From Myxococcota bacterium (GTDB lineage: Bacteria > Myxococcota_A > UBA9042 > PHBI01 > JAWLBL01): a stretch of DNA of 64,000 nucleotides. Location of the stretch: positions 32,001-96,000 of the forward strand of contig JAWLBL010000007.1 in the NCBI GenBank assembly GCA_041687695.1, written 5' to 3'. The position numbers were made by a program, and so were the translations under genes. Every line of letters starts with the position of its first letter. Position 1 is the first letter of the stretch. A model generated the notes under the pieces. It was not told where the DNA came from. It saw nothing but the letters and a program-made list of their open reading frames with translations, and ran no database searches. Below are positions 51,772 to 64,000 of the stretch, in pieces.

Positions 51772-52866
51772 TCATAGCGCGGCGCCCGCCGGCTGGCCAC
51801 CACGCCGCTGCTGCGCGTCGCGGGCCCGCTCGATCTTCTCGCGCGCGCGCCGCTCGTCGGTGGCGTCGGGCTCGGGGGGCTCGTGCAGGAGGTGGGCGTC
51901 CGACTCGAGGCTGAGCGTCACGAGGACGGCGAAGTGATCGGAGCCGCAGCGCGGTAGGCGCGCGAGGCCGGCCAGGCGGAAGTGGGGAGAGTGGAAGACG
52001 TGGTCGAGGGGGAAGCGGACGAGGGGGTTGGCGGCGTGGTAGGTGTTGAGCATGCGCCGGCCGCGCCGCGGGTCGAGCAGGCCGCTCATCTTCTGGAAGT
52101 GGCGGGTCGTCTCGGACCAGGCGACGTCGTTCATGTCGCCGGCGACGACCACGGGGCGAGGGCTGTCGACGACCTCGCGCCCGAGGACGAGCAGCTCGGC
52201 GTCGCGCTCGATGGTGTCGGTGTCCTCCTGGGGGGCGGGCGGGCGCGGGTGCATGCAGCTGAGCCGGACGTGCTCGCCGGAGGGCAGGGAGAGCGTCGCG
52301 TGGATCGAGGGGATGTCGGGCTCGACCAGGTAGCGCACCTCGAAGTCGATGAGGCGCAGGCGCGACAGGAGCAGCATCCCGTAGGTGTTGTCCTGCGGCA
52401 CGGAGACGGCGTGCGGGTAGAGGGCTTCGAGCGTCGCCGCCTGCTCGGCCCACCAGGCGTCGACCTCGAGGGCGACGACGCAGTCCGCGCCGGAGCCGGA
52501 CACCATGTCGCGCCAGGCCTGGCCCTCGCGGTTGCGCTGGAGGACGTTGGTGACCAGGACGCGCAGGGTCCGCTCGGGGTGGTCGGCGCGGGCGTCGTGG
52601 ACCTCCTTGGGCCAAAGCCGCGTGTAGGGCAGCATCCGTGCCAGCTGCACGAGCAGGGCGCCGCTCAGCACGGCCAGCGCCACGGCGTCGAGCGGCTCTC
52701 CCGGCCGGCGCGACAGGGCGAGGCCGACGAGGGCCAGCGCGCCGAGCGCCGTGAAGGTCGGGCGCGGGAAGTCGCAGACGCGGATCCACCACGCCTGGTG
52801 GCGCACGATGGGCAGGGCGGTGACCGCCACGACGAGGGCGGCCACGACGAGGGACGCGATACGCAT
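51772..52866 (-). CDS. Endonuclease/exonuclease/phosphatase family membrane protein
   Basis: N-terminal TM segments, TNVL, AGDMND, LDHVF and GSDH. Confidence 0.9.
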   Translation of the reverse strand: MRIASLVVAALVVAVTALPIVRHQAWWIRVCDFPRPTFTALGALALVGLALSRRPGEPLDAVALAVLSGALLVQLARMLPYTRLWPKEVHDARADHPERTLRVLVTNVLQRNREGQAWRDMVSGSGADCVVALEVDAWWAEQAATLEALYPHAVSVPQDNTYGMLLLSRLRLIDFEVRYLVEPDIPSIHATLSLPSGEHVRLSCMHPRPPAPQEDTDTIERDAELLVLGREVVDSPRPVVVAGDMNDVAWSETTRHFQKMSGLLDPRRGRRMLNTYHAANPLVRFPLDHVFHSPHFRLAGLARLPRCGSDHFAVLVTLSLESDAHLLHEPPEPDATDERRAREKIERARDAQQRRGGQPAGAAL

Positions 52867-53014
52867 CTAAGCTGACTCTGGGTGTTGGGAGGCTGCCCCA
52901 GCGTCGTCGCGGTGACCGCGGACGGCAAGGATGCGCCGCTGGCGGCGCCGGCGGTGACGTGCCAAGCTGCCGCCGGCCGCGAGCGCGCGCGGCCCGAGGA
53001 CCGGAGGAGTCGAG

Positions 53015-53392
53015 ATGGAGCGGAGCGGGTCGACCGAGCGTCCGTGGCTGCTGTGGGACGGCGATTGAGGCTTCTGACGCCGTAGCGCCGCCTGGGTCAG
53101 GCGGACCGACATCGAGGACCGGCTGTGGGTGGTGCCGTACCAGGAGGCGCCGTCGCCGCCCATGACGCCCGAGCTCGCGCGCGCCTGCCGACGTGCCATC
53201 CACGTCCTGCGCGCCGACGGGGCCGTGCTGCGCGCCGGACGCGCCGCCGTGTACGTCTTGGAGGTGCTGGGGTACCGCCGGACGGCCTGGTGCCTGAGGC
53301 GGCGACCGGTCATCTGGGCGGTCGAGCTGGGGTACTGGATCGTCGCGCGCAACCGTCGGCTCTTCTCGCGCGTCGCCTTCAAGCGCGAGTGA
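53015..53392 (+). CDS. DCC1/DUF393-like thiol-disulfide oxidoreductase, putative double selenoprotein (DGD-U-GF-U)
   Basis: GGAGGAG RBS and ATG at 53015. The frame reads LLWDGD-TGA-GF-TGA-RRSAAWV and continues in frame into the ORF at 53129-53392 (AIHV..., GY.IVARNR). A SECIS-like hairpin follows. Confidence 0.82.
53088..53104 (+). promoter_or_regulatory. Putative bacterial SECIS hairpin
   Basis: CCGCCTG-GGT-CAGGCGG; the loop lies 17 nt after the second TGA and 26 nt after the first. Confidence 0.65.
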
Positions 53393-53405
53393 GCGCGCGC
53401 GGCGG

Positions 53406-56400
53406 CTAGGGCGCGACGGTGGTCTCGTTGACGGCCCAGGTCCGCCAGCCGTCGCCGAAGAAGGCGCCGGCCGCGGAGTCGTCGAAGTCCATGCCGTCGG
53501 CGGTGGCGGCCCGCATGATGGTCATCGGCTTCAACCCGGGCGCGAGGCCGGCCTTGCCGGCTCCGGGGACCAGGTCGGGCAGGGTCACCGACGTCAGATC
53601 GCCGTCGGCCCAGACCGTCCACTCGGTGTAGGGGATGGTGACGAGCATCCCGCAGATGGTGCACGGCGGGGTCTGGGCGTCGAACGTCACCATCTGTAGA
53701 TCCGGCTCGGCCGAGGGCCTGACCTGCCACGACACGACATCGGAGCCGTGCGGCCCGGGCTGGAACGAGATGTGCTCGGGGATGGCCAGCATGGGCCCGA
53801 GGACCAGCTCGCGAGAGCCCATGGCCCAGACGACGTCGTCGGTGCCCGCCACCGCCAGCAGGGCCCCTCGGTGCTGCTGGGGCGAGCGGTCGCGCCACTT
53901 GCCGGCCTCGAGCTCGATCACCCGGCCGCCGACCCCGACCGCAAAGACCTCGTCAGGCCCGCGGCCCCACACGCCCATCAGGGTCGACGTGGTCGGCGTC
54001 TTCATCACCACCGGGGCCTCGCCGGGGCGCCAGGTCGCGACCGTGCCGGCCTCGCCCACGGCGTACAGGCGGAAGTCCCCCGCGTCCTCGACCCCCCAGA
54101 CGGCGTTGAGCGACGGCTGACCGGGCACGGTCGAGGTCGTCCACTGGGCGCCGTCCCAATGGCCCACCCAGCCCTGGGCTCCGACGACCCACAGGTCGCC
54201 GGTCGCGCCCTCGTCGACGCGTCCCCACACGGCGCGCACCTTCACCGGGGCCGTGAACGCGGTCGCCCAGGTGTCCGCGTGGTAGCGCAGCACGTGATTG
54301 CCGCCGACCGCCCAGGCCTCGTCCGCCGAGGCGACCCACACCCCGGTCAGCGTGATGTCGACTCCGGTCTCGCGCTGCGTCCAGACGGTGTCGCCGAGGT
54401 GCGTCGCGACGCCGCGCTCGCCGGCGGCCACGCCGACTCCGGGCGCGAGCACATGCACCGCGTGCAGGTCGACCTGGGTCCCCGACGGCTGGTGGGCCCA
54501 GTAGCCGTCGCCGATGCTCCGGACGACCAGCCCGCCGTCGCCGACGGCGTAGACGGCGTCACCCGCGCTGGACAGGCCGCGGACGTCCTCGGTCGGCGCG
54601 GGCGCGCTGGCGGTCCAGCCGTCGGGGCCGCGCCGCCAGGCGGTGTCGCTGCGCAGCCGCGGCAGATCGGTGTCCAGGATGGCGCTGTAGGCGTTGGGGG
54701 TCTGCGCCGACTGGACCACCGCGTACAGCGTGTAGGTGGCGTCGTGCAGCGTCCCGGTGAGCTGGCTGGGCACCCGAGCGCTCAGGGGCGCGCGGCCGGT
54801 GGCGAACATGGGCGGGAACTCGAGGACGCCCTCGCCGCCGAGATCGAGGAACAGGCGCGCCTGCACCGACTCGAGCGCCGTCGGACCGAGGTCGGGGCGG
54901 TCGAGCTCTATGGTGACCTGCTCGTTCAGCGGCCGGTCGATGGCGACCTCCATGGTGACCACCTGGCCGTTCGTGGTCGCGCTGAGGCCACGGGTGACGC
55001 CGAGCATCTCGGGGCGGAAGCCCTTGGGCGTCATCACGCCCGCCCAGCAGAAGATCGCGTAGTCGCCCAGGCGCGACGTGAACGTGAACTTGCCATCGGG
55101 GCCGACCGGGACCCCCGGGAAGGGGTAGGCGTCGATGGAGCCGACGCCGGGGTTGGTGATGTCGCAGTAGATCTGAAGGTCTCCCGGCGACGGGACGCAC
55201 TGCAGCGCCGCGACGCCCGTGAGCGGCAGGCAGCTGAAGCCGGTCGGGCAGTCCACGTCCGCCGTGCAGTCGGTGGTGCAGTGCGAGCCCTGGCCGGGCA
55301 GGGACGAGCAGCGGCCGCCGGGGCACTCGTCGTGGTCGTCGCAGCTGAGGCACAGCGGCGAGGGCGGCCCCAGCTGGTCGTCGCAGCGGCCCCAGGGCTT
55401 CTTGACCCCCTTGACGCCGGTGTCCACCACGCCGTCGGACTTGCCGGACTGCCCCGGGGGCTGGTCGCACGGGATGTCCAGATCGGTGCAGTGCGGGATG
55501 GTGTCCACCGCCAGCGTGACGTTGGTCGCGTCGAAGCCGACCAGCGACGAGGTCGTGTGGTTGTGGAGCGTGGCCGAGACCTGCTGGTCGCCGACCAGCT
55601 CGGGGCCGCTGAACGTGATGAGCCCGTCCGCGTTCGTGAAGCCCTGGTGGGGCGTCGACGGGTCGTGGCCCAGCATCACGAAGGCGCCGGCGACCCGCCC
55701 GCCCGAGAAGCGGTCGACCACCGTCACGTGCACGTTGCGGGCGACCGGGCCACCCCAGGTCCCTGGCGCGCTGCCCGGATCGTAATAGGTGAACCCCTTG
55801 GCCAGCTTCGCCGCGGCCGTGTTGGAGGTCAGCACGAGGACGTCGGCGGGGCCCTCGAAGCCGGGCGGCGTCTTCGCCTCGAGGCGCCCCTGCGACAGCA
55901 CCACCGCGTTCGTCGCCGGGGCGTCGCCGACACGCACCTGCGAGCCGGGGAGGAAGCCGTTGCCGAAGACGGTCACGAGGTCGCCGCCGGCGGTGCTGCC
56001 GTGGGGCGGGTCGACGAGCCAGATCGCCGCGGGCGCCTGGTACTGGAAGCCGCCGAAGAGCGTGTCCTGCTGGCCGCCATCGAAGACCGTCACGTTGGCG
56101 AGGCCCGGCGTCCCCGGCGGCGTGGTGATGGTCAGGGTCTGGGCGTCGACGAAGGTGACCTGGGCGGCGAGGGCGCCGACGCGGACTTCGGTGGCGGGCG
56201 TGAAGCCCGCGCCAGAGAGGGTCGCCTGGGTGCCGCCCGCGGCGGGCCCGAAGATCGGCGTGATGTCGTGGAGGCGGGGGGAGGGGAGGTAGGTGTAGGC
56301 CGCGTCCAGGACGCTCGGCTCGCCGCCGCTGCCGACCGAGACCGCGACGGCGCCCTCGGCCAGCGCCGTCGGGGCGGCTACGACGACCGTGTGCGCGTCC

Positions 56401-57521
56401 AGGTCCACCGAGACCAGGGGCGCGACCCGGTCGCCGAACCGGACCTCGACTTCAGCCATGTGGGAGAGCCCGAGGACTCCCAGGGTCACCAGGTTCCCGC
56501 CGCCCATTGGGCCCGAGGCCGGGAAGACGGTCAGCAGCTCGGGCGCGTCGGCCGCCACGTCGTCGAGGTAGGTGTAGGCGCGCTCGGCGGTCTCGCTGCC
56601 CCAGGCCGTGCTGACGACGAGATCCACCGCGCCCGGCTCGGCCGCTGCGGGGGCGAGCACCTCGAGCTCGCCGGGCCCCACGATCTGCACCTCGTCGCAC
56701 TCGCGACCATCCAGGGTCACCAGCAGCGGCGCGACGAACCCTCGCCCGAGCACCGTGACGCGGTTGTCGCCCGCCAGCGGACCGACCGCGGGCTGCACCG
56801 AGACCACGCGCGGCGCCTCGAAGTAGACGTACCCCTCGGCGAGGCGGCCGACCCCGAGGTCGCTCGCCACGCGCACGTCGACGGGGCCCGGCGTCGCCGT
56901 GTCGGGCGTGGTCGCGACGATCGTCTCGCCGTCCAGGACCTCGACGCCGATGGCCAGCCTGTCGCCGAACACGACCCGGGCGCCGGCCGTGAAGCCCGAC
57001 CCGGTGATCGTGACCGTCTCGCCGCCCAGCACGTGGCCCGACGGAGGCGTGACGGCGCCGACCGTGACCGGCTCTTCGAACACGTAGGCTGCGTCCAGGC
57101 GGGCGACCTTGCCGCTCTTGTGCACCACGGTGACGTCGACCACCCCGTGCGGGCGCGGCGGCGTGCTGGCCACGATGAGGCCGTCGGTCAGGGCCAGCCA
57201 GTCGGGCGCGGGCGTCTCGCCGAAGTAGACGACCGCCGTGTCCTTCAACCCCGCGCCGAACAGCGTCACCTCGGTGAAGCCCGCGGTGGGGCCGCGGTCG
57301 GGCGCGAGGCCGGTCAGCACGAAGCCGGACGGCTTGGGGGCGTCCGGGCCGGCGTCGTCGGCGACGTCCGGCGCGCCGGTGTCTGGAGCGTCGACGTCTG
57401 GGTGCGCGTCGCCCTTGGAGGGGGGCGATCCCGCGACCGGGTCGGAGCAGGCCTGAAGGCCGCCGAGCAAGCACGCGAGGACGGCGAGCGCGACGAGGTG
57501 GCGGGTGGAGCGCTGGTTCAC
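53406..57521 (-). CDS. IPT/TIG multi-domain lipoprotein with a Cys-rich segment and beta-propeller-like repeats
   Basis: GTG start with GAGAGG RBS, lipobox LQAC, six P..G...GG..VT..G.GF IPT repeats, and VWG/AVG repeats. Confidence 0.88.
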   Translation of the reverse strand: MNQRSTRHLVALAVLACLLGGLQACSDPVAGSPPSKGDAHPDVDAPDTGAPDVADDAGPDAPKPSGFVLTGLAPDRGPTAGFTEVTLFGAGLKDTAVVYFGETPAPDWLALTDGLIVASTPPRPHGVVDVTVVHKSGKVARLDAAYVFEEPVTVGAVTPPSGHVLGGETVTITGSGFTAGARVVFGDRLAIGVEVLDGETIVATTPDTATPGPVDVRVASDLGVGRLAEGYVYFEAPRVVSVQPAVGPLAGDNRVTVLGRGFVAPLLVTLDGRECDEVQIVGPGELEVLAPAAAEPGAVDLVVSTAWGSETAERAYTYLDDVAADAPELLTVFPASGPMGGGNLVTLGVLGLSHMAEVEVRFGDRVAPLVSVDLDAHTVVVAAPTALAEGAVAVSVGSGGEPSVLDAAYTYLPSPRLHDITPIFGPAAGGTQATLSGAGFTPATEVRVGALAAQVTFVDAQTLTITTPPGTPGLANVTVFDGGQQDTLFGGFQYQAPAAIWLVDPPHGSTAGGDLVTVFGNGFLPGSQVRVGDAPATNAVVLSQGRLEAKTPPGFEGPADVLVLTSNTAAAKLAKGFTYYDPGSAPGTWGGPVARNVHVTVVDRFSGGRVAGAFVMLGHDPSTPHQGFTNADGLITFSGPELVGDQQVSATLHNHTTSSLVGFDATNVTLAVDTIPHCTDLDIPCDQPPGQSGKSDGVVDTGVKGVKKPWGRCDDQLGPPSPLCLSCDDHDECPGGRCSSLPGQGSHCTTDCTADVDCPTGFSCLPLTGVAALQCVPSPGDLQIYCDITNPGVGSIDAYPFPGVPVGPDGKFTFTSRLGDYAIFCWAGVMTPKGFRPEMLGVTRGLSATTNGQVVTMEVAIDRPLNEQVTIELDRPDLGPTALESVQARLFLDLGGEGVLEFPPMFATGRAPLSARVPSQLTGTLHDATYTLYAVVQSAQTPNAYSAILDTDLPRLRSDTAWRRGPDGWTASAPAPTEDVRGLSSAGDAVYAVGDGGLVVRSIGDGYWAHQPSGTQVDLHAVHVLAPGVGVAAGERGVATHLGDTVWTQRETGVDITLTGVWVASADEAWAVGGNHVLRYHADTWATAFTAPVKVRAVWGRVDEGATGDLWVVGAQGWVGHWDGAQWTTSTVPGQPSLNAVWGVEDAGDFRLYAVGEAGTVATWRPGEAPVVMKTPTTSTLMGVWGRGPDEVFAVGVGGRVIELEAGKWRDRSPQQHRGALLAVAGTDDVVWAMGSRELVLGPMLAIPEHISFQPGPHGSDVVSWQVRPSAEPDLQMVTFDAQTPPCTICGMLVTIPYTEWTVWADGDLTSVTLPDLVPGAGKAGLAPGLKPMTIMRAATADGMDFDDSAAGAFFGDGWRTWAVNETTVAP

Positions 57522-57829: not shown

Positions 57830-61159
<3,330 letters not shown>

Positions 61160-61177
61160 CGTCCGCCCTCCCATCGC

Positions 61178-64000
61178 TCAGGGGCACCCGGGCGTCGCGA
61201 CGCCCTGGCACGCGCCAAACTGGCACACGTCGCCCGTGGTGCAGGCGTCCTCGTCGTCGCACGGGTAGCCCCCGGCCACGAGGAAGTCGTCCAACGCGAC
61301 GTACACCGCCCCCGCGGCGTGCGCCGCCACGTCCACCTCGAACGTGACCGTGACCAGCTGATCCGCCCAGGGGCCGAGGTCGACCTCTCGCACCACCGGG
61401 CCGTCCGTCGTGCCGCACACCGTGTCCACCACGGCCCCGCCGATGCGCGCTCGGACCACGTCCTGCCCACAGCCGGCCGTCGGCAACGCCGCCTCGACGG
61501 TCCAGCTCAGCGTGCCGCCGCCCAGCGGGACGATCAGCTCCGGGCTCTCGATGGACAGCGTCACCGCCGGCGACGACCCCTCGGTCGGGCCGACCGCCAC
61601 CAGCGCGTTCGGCGCCGATCCCGCCGACCCGGCCTCCACCCACCAGGCCCAGGCGGCGCTCGACGACGCGCCGCTCCAACCCAGCGGGGGCGGCCCCGGC
61701 GGCATGTCGTCGAAGGTCTCTCCCAGCTCGGGCTGGCCGTGGTGGACCAGCTGGAAGACGCACGCGCCCTGCGAGCAGTAGCCGTTGGCGCAGGGCCCGG
61801 GCAGGTCGCACTCGAGCAGCTCGCCCTGACACACGGTCCCGAAGCACGTGTCGTTGTACGTGCAAGGATCGCCGTCGTCGCAGTCGCCCAGCTTCGGCGT
61901 GTGCTGACACCCGAGCGCCGGATCGCAGCTGTCGACGGTGCACGGCAGGCCGTCGTCGCAGCTCGCCGCCGCGCCCACGCAAGCGCCCGCCGTGCAGGTG
62001 TCGCCGGTCGTGCAGGCGTCCCCGTCGTCGCAAGCCCCCGCGACCGGCGTGTCGACGCAGAACCCGTCCACGCACGTCGCCGCCATGCAGGGCCCGTCCG
62101 CCACGCAATCGGCGTCCACGTCGCAGGCGCACGCGGCCAGCGGCGAGAAGGCGCAGGCGTTGCTCACCGGGTCGCAGGCGTCCGCGGTGCACGGGTCGCC
62201 GTCGTCGCAGACCATCGGCTCGGCCACGCAGGCGCCGCTCTGGCACACGCCCACCGTGCACGGCGCGTCGCCCACGCAGGCGAAGGTCCCGACCAGCCGC
62301 AGGTCGTCCACCATCACGCCCGCCCCGTCGTTCTGCGTGCCGTTGGCGTTGAAGACCAACAACACCCGGATCTGCCGGTCGGTCATGGCGGACAGGTCGA
62401 CCTCGATCTCGGTCCACTCGTCCACATGGGTAGACAGGCAGAAGACCTGGTCGGTCACGCCGCCGCTGTCGACGCGCACGGCCAGGAAGTCCTTGGTCGG
62501 AAAGCAGATGTTCGAGGGCGCGGTCGTCTCGGCGAGGCCGGTCTTCACCTTGAAGCGCAACGTCAGCTGCGAGCCGTAGACCCACATGGGCGGCGACTTC
62601 AGCGTGGCCAGCCCCGCGCCGTGATCATAGGTCCCGTCGGCGCCCGTCATCGTCAGGCCGAGGCCGCCCGCGCTCGCCGAGGCCTGCGCCGAGACCTTCC
62701 AGCCGAACCCGGCGTTCGTGCTCGAGGCCGCCCAGCCGGTCGGCAGGCCGTCGTCGAAGGTCGCGTCGACGAAGGTCATCGAGCCGCTCAGCGGCTGGTG
62801 CGAGCACACGCCCGCGCTGCACAGGTCGGCCGTGCAGTCGTCGTCGTCGTCGCAAAGCGACTCGCTGGCCGGCACGCACGCGCCGCCGACGCAGTGGTCC
62901 TCGAGCGAGCACGGCTCGCCGTCGTCGCAGGCCGTCCCCTCGGGCTTGGGCTGCGTCACGCACTTGCCCGTCGCCGGGTCACAGGCGTCGAGGGTGCAGG
63001 CGGTCTCGTTGGGTGGACACGTCACGACGCCCGCCGGGACGCAGGTGTGGGTCGCGAGGTGGCACGACCACGCCAGGACGCACGCGTCGGCCTGCGGTGG
63101 GTCGTCGCAGTCGGCGTCGCTCTGGCACTCGCAGCCGTTGGCGCCGCCGACGCAGGTCCCCGCGACGCAGGCGTCTCCCGTCGTGCAGGGGTTGCCGTCG
63201 TCGCAGGTGTTCGGGGCCGGCGCGTGCTGGCAGACGGCCGCGCCGCTCGCGCCCACGCAGAAGTCCGTGGTGCAGGGGTTGCCGTCGCTGCACGGGTAGG
63301 GGCTCCCGGTGCACTTGCCGACGACGCAGGTGTCCTCGACGGTGCAGGGGTTGCCATCGTTGCAGTCGCCGGCCTGCGGCGCGTGCACGCAGCCTCCGGC
63401 CTCGGCGTCGCAGGCGTCCGCCGTGCACGGGTTCTTGTCGTCGCAGTCGAGCGCCTGCCCCGCGCAGTCCCCGAGGGCGTCGCAGGCGTCCCCGGACGTG
63501 CAGGGATCTCCGTCGTCACACGCGGCCCCGGCGACGGGCGCGACCTCGCAGCCGCCGTCCGGCAGGCACAGGTCGGCCGTGCACGGATCCCCGTCGTCGC
63601 ACCGGGCCACCGTGCCCTCGCACAGGCCCGAGGCGCAGGCGCCTTCGGTGAAGCAGGTGTCGCTGGGCGTGCACGGCGCCCCCTCGTTGCGGGGCGTCAT
63701 GACGCACGCGCCCGAGCCGGGGTCGCAGACCGCGTGGGCGCAGGTCGTGTCGCTCTCTGCGTTGCACACGACGGCGCGGCTGGGGTCGGGGACGCAGCTC
63801 CAGTCCGCCCCGCACACGTACCCGGCGGCGCACAGGTCGCCCAGGCCGGCGCAGGCCTCGTCGCTGGTGCACTCGCAGGTCTCGCCCGGCGTCCCGGCGC
63901 AGGTCCCGTCGCCCTGGCAGGCGTCCCCGTCGGTGCAGGCGTTGCCGTCGTCGCAGGGGCCCGTGCCGCCCGGCTTGACGCTGCAGGCGCCCGTGAGCGA
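61178..64000 (-). CDS. Cys-rich protein with Dictyostelium CTDC-like repeats and jelly-roll domains (5' end beyond window)
   Basis: Many CDDGxPCTxDxC repeats; the frame stays open from 63817 to 64000. Confidence 0.88.
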   Translation of the reverse strand, partial: SLTGACSVKPGGTGPCDDGNACTDGDACQGDGTCAGTPGETCECTSDEACAGLGDLCAAGYVCGADWSCVPDPSRAVVCNAESDTTCAHAVCDPGSGACVMTPRNEGAPCTPSDTCFTEGACASGLCEGTVARCDDGDPCTADLCLPDGGCEVAPVAGAACDDGDPCTSGDACDALGDCAGQALDCDDKNPCTADACDAEAGGCVHAPQAGDCNDGNPCTVEDTCVVGKCTGSPYPCSDGNPCTTDFCVGASGAAVCQHAPAPNTCDDGNPCTTGDACVAGTCVGGANGCECQSDADCDDPPQADACVLAWSCHLATHTCVPAGVVTCPPNETACTLDACDPATGKCVTQPKPEGTACDDGEPCSLEDHCVGGACVPASESLCDDDDDCTADLCSAGVCSHQPLSGSMTFVDATFDDGLPTGWAASSTNAGFGWKVSAQASASAGGLGLTMTGADGTYDHGAGLATLKSPPMWVYGSQLTLRFKVKTGLAETTAPSNICFPTKDFLAVRVDSGGVTDQVFCLSTHVDEWTEIEVDLSAMTDRQIRVLLVFNANGTQNDGAGVMVDDLRLVGTFACVGDAPCTVGVCQSGACVAEPMVCDDGDPCTADACDPVSNACAFSPLAACACDVDADCVADGPCMAATCVDGFCVDTPVAGACDDGDACTTGDTCTAGACVGAAASCDDGLPCTVDSCDPALGCQHTPKLGDCDDGDPCTYNDTCFGTVCQGELLECDLPGPCANGYCSQGACVFQLVHHGQPELGETFDDMPPGPPPLGWSGASSSAAWAWWVEAGSAGSAPNALVAVGPTEGSSPAVTLSIESPELIVPLGGGTLSWTVEAALPTAGCGQDVVRARIGGAVVDTVCGTTDGPVVREVDLGPWADQLVTVTFEVDVAAHAAGAVYVALDDFLVAGGYPCDDEDACTTGDVCQFGACQGVATPGCP

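Follow-up and report, generated by a model that had tools for sequence, protein, structure and literature searches.

The locus at positions 53015–53392 of the window (the whole stretch of 64,000 nt of DNA that was analysed) poses the question of whether a reading frame with TGA at both cysteine positions of a DxxCxxC motif is a broken gene or encodes a protein with two selenocysteine (Sec) residues. The reading that we favour, with a probability of roughly 0.9, is that the gene would encode a stand-alone DCC-family thiol/selenol oxidoreductase of ~14 kDa with a DxxUxxU active site, Sec being inserted by means of one hairpin. The features of the locus are as follows.

53003..53009, + strand: Shine–Dalgarno-like GGAGGAG, whose GGAGG core ends 7 nt 5′ of the ATG (from the sequence)
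53015..53392, + strand: DCC1-like (DUF393) oxidoreductase gene, 125 aa with both UGA codons read through
53057..53077, + strand: D15-x-x-U18-x-x-U21 motif, the DxxCxxC of the family (from sequence and alignment)
53066..53068, + strand: TGA 1, codon 18, with the SECIS loop 26 nt further on
53075..53077, + strand: TGA 2, codon 21, with the SECIS loop 17 nt further on
53088..53104, + strand: predicted in-frame bacterial-type SECIS hairpin, with a 7-bp stem (53088–53094 / 53098–53104) and a GGU loop (53095–53097)

A DCC-family gene with two in-frame TGA codons

The gene starts with the ATG at 53015 and ends at a third TGA (53390–53392), which is the end point in most homologues too; its motif reads D15-G-D-U18-G-F-U21, with U replacing C. 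It stands by itself, the upstream neighbour (an EEP-family gene, 51772–52866, minus strand) being divergent and the downstream neighbour (a gene for a long IPT/TIG protein, with its stop at 53406) convergent. A promoter and terminator scan of 52800–53500 found none. Large Cys-rich repeat proteins are clustered beside the gene in the window (53406–56800, 57830–61174 and 61178–63817, all minus strand); one has three IPT/TIG domains, and they look like typical secreted proteins. Gene calling with translation table 11 yields only an 87-aa frame from GTG 53129, and the public protein entry for the gene is this same piece, which lacks both the motif and a Pfam entry. Annotation thus systematically removes the active site of Sec-type DCC genes. 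The first-pass annotation had described a strong ribosome-binding site ahead of the ATG, a DUF393-like body in frame with it, TGAs at the two Cys of the motif, a 7-bp stem with a GGU loop and a gene that ORF callers truncate. All of these held: the first in the GGAGGAG at 53003–53009, the last in the truncated public protein, and the others in the family match, the alignment and the conserved, covarying hairpin described below.

With U read as C, the 125-aa read-through product matched the Pfam DCC1-like family (PF04134) at 49.6 bits (E = 1.2e-12), against a curated cut-off of 27.8 bits. The match spans residues 12–118 and profile positions 1–111 of 113, and with the stops left in place the score was 29.7 bits (six-frame genome search). 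PF04134 was the sole Pfam family at E ≤ 0.001; no AhpC-TSA (PF00578) domain was found in the product at this threshold. The six-frame family search returned one DCC match in the whole source genome, which is the 53015 gene with two TGAs inside. Relatives carry the database name 'predicted DCC family thiol-disulfide oxidoreductase YuxK', and the Cys-type relatives are 52–65% identical among the best 120 listed. In an alignment of 68 rows (the DCC protein and 67 Cys-type relatives, taken from the 119 non-self proteins in that best-120 listing), D15, C18 and C21 are invariant, which places both TGAs at invariant Cys positions. A third Cys, C58 (codon 58, 53186–53188), is invariant in the same Cys-type alignment, but at least one UxxU relative (L050) lacks it.

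A confident AlphaFold2 model of the protein (pLDDT 86.5) contains a strand at residues 11–14, the motif at the start of a helix (19–31), more strands and four C-terminal helices. A VIA structure search with this model gave weak matches, the best to 1nhy_A (Z 6.6, rmsd 4.6, 111 aligned residues), with thioredoxin 4cw9_B at Z 5.4 (rmsd 3.4, 78 aligned), and Foldseek returned nothing at E ≤ 0.001 (best E 0.065). The top structure matches are mostly thioredoxin, glutaredoxin and GST-type (GST-N) domains with weak scores. The model is consistent with a thioredoxin-like fold, although matches of this strength do not prove it.

TGA and Cys codons alternate among relatives

The first-pass annotation had proposed that relatives should alternate between TGA and Cys codons, and TGA and TGY do alternate at exactly these two codons. 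Within the order and class, 12 of 61 genomes matched; the closest (G010, 52%) has both TGAs, and distant ones are Cys-type. Across the phylum, 24 of 401 genomes matched at E ≤ 1e-12, comprising 10 UxxU (the source genome included), 2 CxxU and 12 CxxC. In G222, the flagged TGA falls outside the motif.

A pattern that depended on the hairpin and allowed Cys or TGA was run on a species-genome collection and gave at least 80 loci, namely 76 homologues and 4 chance matches. Among the matches listed, 64 were UxxU, 9 CxxU, 2 UxxC and 1 CxxC, with at least one TGA in 75 of 76. Depositor labels, taken as given, include Myxococcota (most of the named carriers), Chloroflexota, Armatimonadota, Planctomycetota, Acidobacteriota, Actinomycetota and a Spirochaetaceae; one record labelled 'Enterobacteriaceae' (L101) groups with a Myxococcales record in the tree. 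The source organism itself probably belongs to the Myxococcota. A hairpin-blind pattern, which demanded TGA at the first codon, was run on metagenomes and gave 55 loci, 17 of them chance matches; the homologues number 37 (35 UxxU and 2 UxxC), a truncated one (L186) being excluded. When all sets are pooled, there are 105 distinct TGA-type stretches from records whose labels span at least six phyla: 91 UxxU, 10 CxxU and 4 UxxC, the 53015 gene included and the type counts biased by the search patterns. TGA therefore stands at both codons in 91 distinct stretches with ~40–65% protein identity, only at the Cys codons and in intact frames, and CxxC, CxxU, UxxC and UxxU replace one another inside one DCC subfamily.

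The distribution of the Sec system was compared with that of the TGA codons. Among the phylum genomes, selA and tRNA-Sec are found in 11/11 TGA-type relatives versus 9/12 Cys-type relatives, the three without a Sec system all being Cys-type, against a phylum background of 120/201 genomes for selA in which kin are not independent. A further 40 of the 76 hairpin-carrying genomes (39 TGA-type, 1 Cys-type) were searched, and selA was found in 37, with 35 over the cut-off and 2 partial; it was not found in the other three (G433, G442 and G451). In one genome (G237), tRNA-Sec matched above the cut-off twice, each time on a separate contig.

Conservation and covariation of the hairpin

Bacterial Sec decoding uses a UGA codon and a 3′ SECIS element within the coding sequence that has a G-containing apical loop. 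The lone 27-mer hairpin of the DCC gene scored z = −1.69 against shuffles, with 14 of 200 shuffles equally good in this 73% GC genome, and the fold of a 65-nt stretch scored z = +0.27. The hairpin by itself does not beat chance; conservation and covariation carry its reality. In 43 distinct stretches recovered blind to the hairpin, 97.3% of cells are paired, as opposed to 16–42% in controls in which the hairpin was slid, and RNAalifold gives the 53088–53104 helix as the only consensus helix. Both sides change in 4 of 7 pairs, and the 27 cells with two-sided change were equalled in 0/500 shuffles, a control that ignores kinship. In one compensatory change, Ala GCC becomes GCT together with Arg AGG to Lys AAG (8 rows); in another, Ala GCC becomes Val GTC together with AGG to AGA (2 rows). 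These counts are inflated by kinship, the eight UA rows probably being related, and the stem letters are held by amino-acid conservation beside pairing.

The hairpin dictates the peptide A-W-V-R together with a rare Arg codon, AGG, which makes up 2% of the Arg codons in the source genome (1112 of 56241) and yet occupies the stem codon in 32/43 rows. Residues 26–29 fit [AV]W[VIFT][RK] in 105/106 Sec-type proteins versus 15/132 Cys-type proteins. All five core pairs are kept in 0/12 Cys-type genes, and the hairpin core with its loop G occurs in 37/37 metagenome homologues versus 0/17 chance matches. The first loop base is G in 43/43 hairpin-blind rows.

The bacterial SECIS model, as described in PMC13188914, comprises an apical loop of 3–9 nt on a stem of 4–16 bp, a G within the first two loop positions, 16–37 nt from UGA to loop and a minimum free energy (MFE) at or below −7.5 kcal/mol. 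The first-pass annotation had proposed a check by bacterial SECIS prediction, and the DCC hairpin lies within all four limits for both UGAs, with a 3-nt GGU loop, 7 bp, distances of 26 and 17 nt and an MFE of −12.5 kcal/mol. An MFE of −7.5 kcal/mol was reached by 39/40 Sec-type versus 2/12 Cys-type 21-mers. The 17 nt between UGA 2 and the loop equal the distance in the selD gene of the source genome; the distance is 18 nt in a gene that we take to be formate-dehydrogenase-like.

One probable SECIS hairpin for two UGA codons

The suggestion that one SECIS may serve two UGAs 9 nt apart is supported by a single conserved hairpin that keeps the same register in UxxC and CxxU forms. The hairpin occupies one register in all 105 TGA-type stretches, a result that is true by construction for the hairpin-dependent set and for which the blind sets supply two UxxC and two CxxU cases. 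Forms with a lone UGA and an unmoved hairpin comprise 4 UxxC (26 nt) and 10 CxxU (17 nt). Because the register does not change between them, each distance appears to work alone. A separate SECIS for UGA 1 was considered and rejected, since RNAalifold gives one conserved helix only. With a lone UGA served at 26 nt and at 17 nt and with no second hairpin, the simplest reading of these sequences is that one hairpin acts as SECIS for both codons. Single-SECIS decoding has already been proposed for UXXU hydrogenases (PMC13582414). The 125-aa DCC gene makes it testable whether one bacterial SECIS serves two UGAs 9 nt apart, and the hairpin, at 17 nt and with covarying pairs, could be of use as a compact element for expressing proteins with several Sec residues.

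Selenocysteine machinery of the source genome

Of the four genes for which the first-pass annotation had proposed a search (selA, selB, selC and selD), all are present in the source genome (7.97 Mb, 73% GC, 99.3% complete). A selA match has E = 4e-119 and a selB match lies above its cut-off. There is one tRNA-Sec gene (78 bits), with a UCA anticodon, a long variable arm and a G discriminator, and selD is present, itself with one in-frame TGA.

This selD gene (C8:58925, L018) is a selenoprotein candidate in its own right; its TGA lies in TTGG-U-AAK, and the GGC loop of a 9-bp hairpin follows at 17 nt. On C12:137225 (+), a frame of ~1080 codons, presumably formate-dehydrogenase-alpha-like, carries a TGA in frame ahead of HSAT, and its hairpin resembles that of E. 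coli, with a GGUCU loop at 18 nt. A CxxU frame on C16:77595 (+) (NACRF-U-TAAHG), which we take to be AhpD/CMD-like, has a possible hairpin with a GGUC loop at 17 nt. The C12:137225 and C16:77595 genes are likely to be further selenoproteins. These sites were noted beside a UGA-plus-hairpin scan of the source genome that gave 10 candidates and is no census, its codon filter having passed over the DCC gene. A site at C13:182574 was rejected as a Sec site; it looks like an ordinary stop.

Proposed function and alternative explanations

We hold with high confidence that both TGA codons of the DCC gene are read as Sec. The product is probably a redox enzyme, and a catalytic diselenide is favoured with less assurance. 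The steps of Sec incorporation follow from established bacterial Sec decoding. The hairpin would be bound by SelB–GTP–Sec-tRNA(Sec) and Sec delivered at UGA 1, with the loop 26 nt off; three codons on, this hairpin would not yet have entered the ribosome and would be reloaded to deliver Sec at UGA 2 (17 nt, the usual spacing of this genome). Full-length protein would hinge on selenium supply, because either UGA can terminate translation. By comparison with thioredoxin-type motifs, U18, at the N-terminal end of helix 1, would attack a peroxide or the disulfide of a protein, with U21 resolving the intermediate to an Se–Se bond, which would need a strong reductant to be re-reduced. The substrate would most likely be a protein disulfide, by analogy with Arabidopsis DCC1, which reduces CA2 through direct interaction as described in PMC7598583.

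Gene neighbourhoods were clustered for 87 Sec-type loci (flanks of ~1.5 kb) and revealed lineage-level synteny only, the largest cluster holding 8 loci. The 53015 gene shares no synteny cluster, and no conserved neighbour in these flanks indicates a substrate or reductase partner. Eight UxxU loci (L052, L055, L065, L076, L084, L101, L103 and L129) form a lineage-limited subgroup, flanked on one side by a helicase-like gene and on the other by a further conserved gene.

It is conceivable, though unlikely, that the protein is a real selenoprotein whose UxxU motif is a binding site for a metal or metalloid, or stays as a static diselenide, with no reductase cycling. Diselenides are hard to reduce, and the neighbourhood of the DCC gene offers no reductase partner. 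The catalogued bacterial UxxU proteins moreover include the metal-binding NF041115 and an FmdB-family protein (PMC13188914). Against these points, the DCC family is annotated as thiol-disulfide oxidoreductase and its Arabidopsis member acts on CA2; the model puts the motif where thioredoxins have theirs, after strand 1 and before helix 1; and CxxC, CxxU, UxxC and UxxU interchange in one subfamily. The redox reading is preferred, and the natural CxxC, CxxU and UxxC relatives allow comparison with a UxxU diselenide in a thioredoxin-like site.

A second and serious alternative, which we nonetheless judge improbable, is that a SECIS-dependent tRNA-ReC (SelC*) reads one or both UGAs as Cys, giving a CxxC, UxxC or CxxU protein. 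Such recoding would be expected to involve an extra CysRS-like gene beside an extra SelC-like tRNA. With general tRNA and CysRS models, neither was found in the source genome: one CysRS lies over the cut-off, there is one tRNA-Sec-type gene, and 47/47 Rfam tRNA matches coincide with ordinary ARAGORN tRNAs, leaving no unexplained tRNA in a set that is itself incomplete, as the assembly yielded no Ile(GAT) tRNA. A relaxed ARAGORN search for odd tRNAs gave 6,700 calls, which are noise. Armatimonadota-labelled records do occur among the DCC carriers, and tRNA-ReC-like tRNAs are described as enriched in genomes with UXXU hydrogenases, where they occur in ~56%, including 5/5 Armatimonadota (PMC13582414). 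We nevertheless favour Sec at both codons.

A pseudogene or assembly error, with two nonsense changes or with the 87-aa piece from GTG 53129 as the product, has a very slight probability. It would account for table-11 calling yielding that frame alone, but the piece has no motif and no Pfam entry, and two nonsense changes would not recur in 91 distinct stretches at Cys codons only, in intact frames and with a hairpin under selection. A variant code in which UGA is generally sense is more remote still: the DCC gene terminates at TGA where its homologues end, the selA, selB and CysRS matches (the few genes looked at) have no internal stops, tRNA-Sec is the only UCA-anticodon tRNA at the default threshold, and TGA is tied to the hairpin. 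Conservation thus effectively excludes pseudogene, assembly error and variant code. A search of sequencing runs listed no RNA run, and the one DNA run gave short pieces only, none of them over the TGA codons.

Possible gain and loss of Sec

In a FastTree phylogeny of 238 sequences, Sec and Cys forms are intermixed, with 20 changes versus 69 or more in shuffles; support for the tree is low, and Sec forms are drawn together by the residues that the hairpin fixes. The AWVR peptide is retained in several Cys proteins that sit among Sec forms in the tree. In a CxxC gene from a Tepidiformaceae-labelled record (L096), whose genome has selA, the hairpin is still present with a GAU loop; this gene is likely to be a recent reversion from Sec. 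The mixing in the tree, the retained peptide and this hairpin together suggest, at low tree support, that Sec may have been lost repeatedly in the DCC subfamily. We lean, by a small degree, towards a wider proposal: an uncatalogued subfamily in several phyla in which one 17-nt hairpin would direct Sec insertion twice, three codons apart, and so give a thioredoxin-like reductase a diselenide that cycles in catalysis, with CxxC, CxxU, UxxC and UxxU forms sharing an unmoved SECIS, and with the double-Sec form perhaps ancestral and reversions leaving AWVR as a scar.

Comparison with known selenoproteins

No PF04134 or DCC entry appears among the 119 prokaryotic selenoprotein families tabulated in PMC13188914 (2026), and word searches for DCC and DUF393 gave 0 hits in that paper and in PMC9312934, in the four deep-Sep supplements (PMC12013277) and in the main text of BSepDB (PMC13326102). 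A search of NCBIfam (June 2026) with the product matched no model at E ≤ 1, and literature searches combining DCC or DUF393 with selenoprotein or selenocysteine found nothing relevant. The gene very probably represents a known enzyme family in a double-Sec form, one that is absent from the 119-family catalogue, and DCC/DUF393, whose bacterial function is barely known, would join the bacterial selenoproteome.

The product shares with DCC1-like/DUF393 proteins (PF04134, Arabidopsis DCC1) a whole-length Pfam match and the D15, C18 and C21 positions; it differs from ordinary members in that both Cys codons are TGA and that an in-frame SECIS fixes residues 26–29. Selenoprotein L, reportedly described by Shchedrina et al. 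in 2007, is said to combine a thioredoxin-like fold with a UxxU redox motif that can form a diselenide, and to be Prx/AhpC-like, mainly eukaryotic and served by a 3′-UTR SECIS. The UxxU motif is common to both, whereas the DCC protein differs by its family and its bacterial in-frame SECIS.

The first-pass annotation had called such a site rare, which stands, but the site is less singular than that wording implied. UxxU already occurs in three of the 119 catalogued bacterial families, namely Prx-like PF00578, metal-binding NF041115 and FmdB-family TIGR02605 (PMC13188914), and Group 4 [NiFeSe] hydrogenases are described with CXXU, UXXC and UXXU variants and a single proposed downstream SECIS (PMC13582414). 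Like these proteins, the DCC gene would place two Sec three codons apart. In contrast to them, it belongs to another family (PF04134 only), UxxU is its majority Sec form (91 of 105 stretches, subject to the bias of the search patterns), and its hairpin shows direct covariation.
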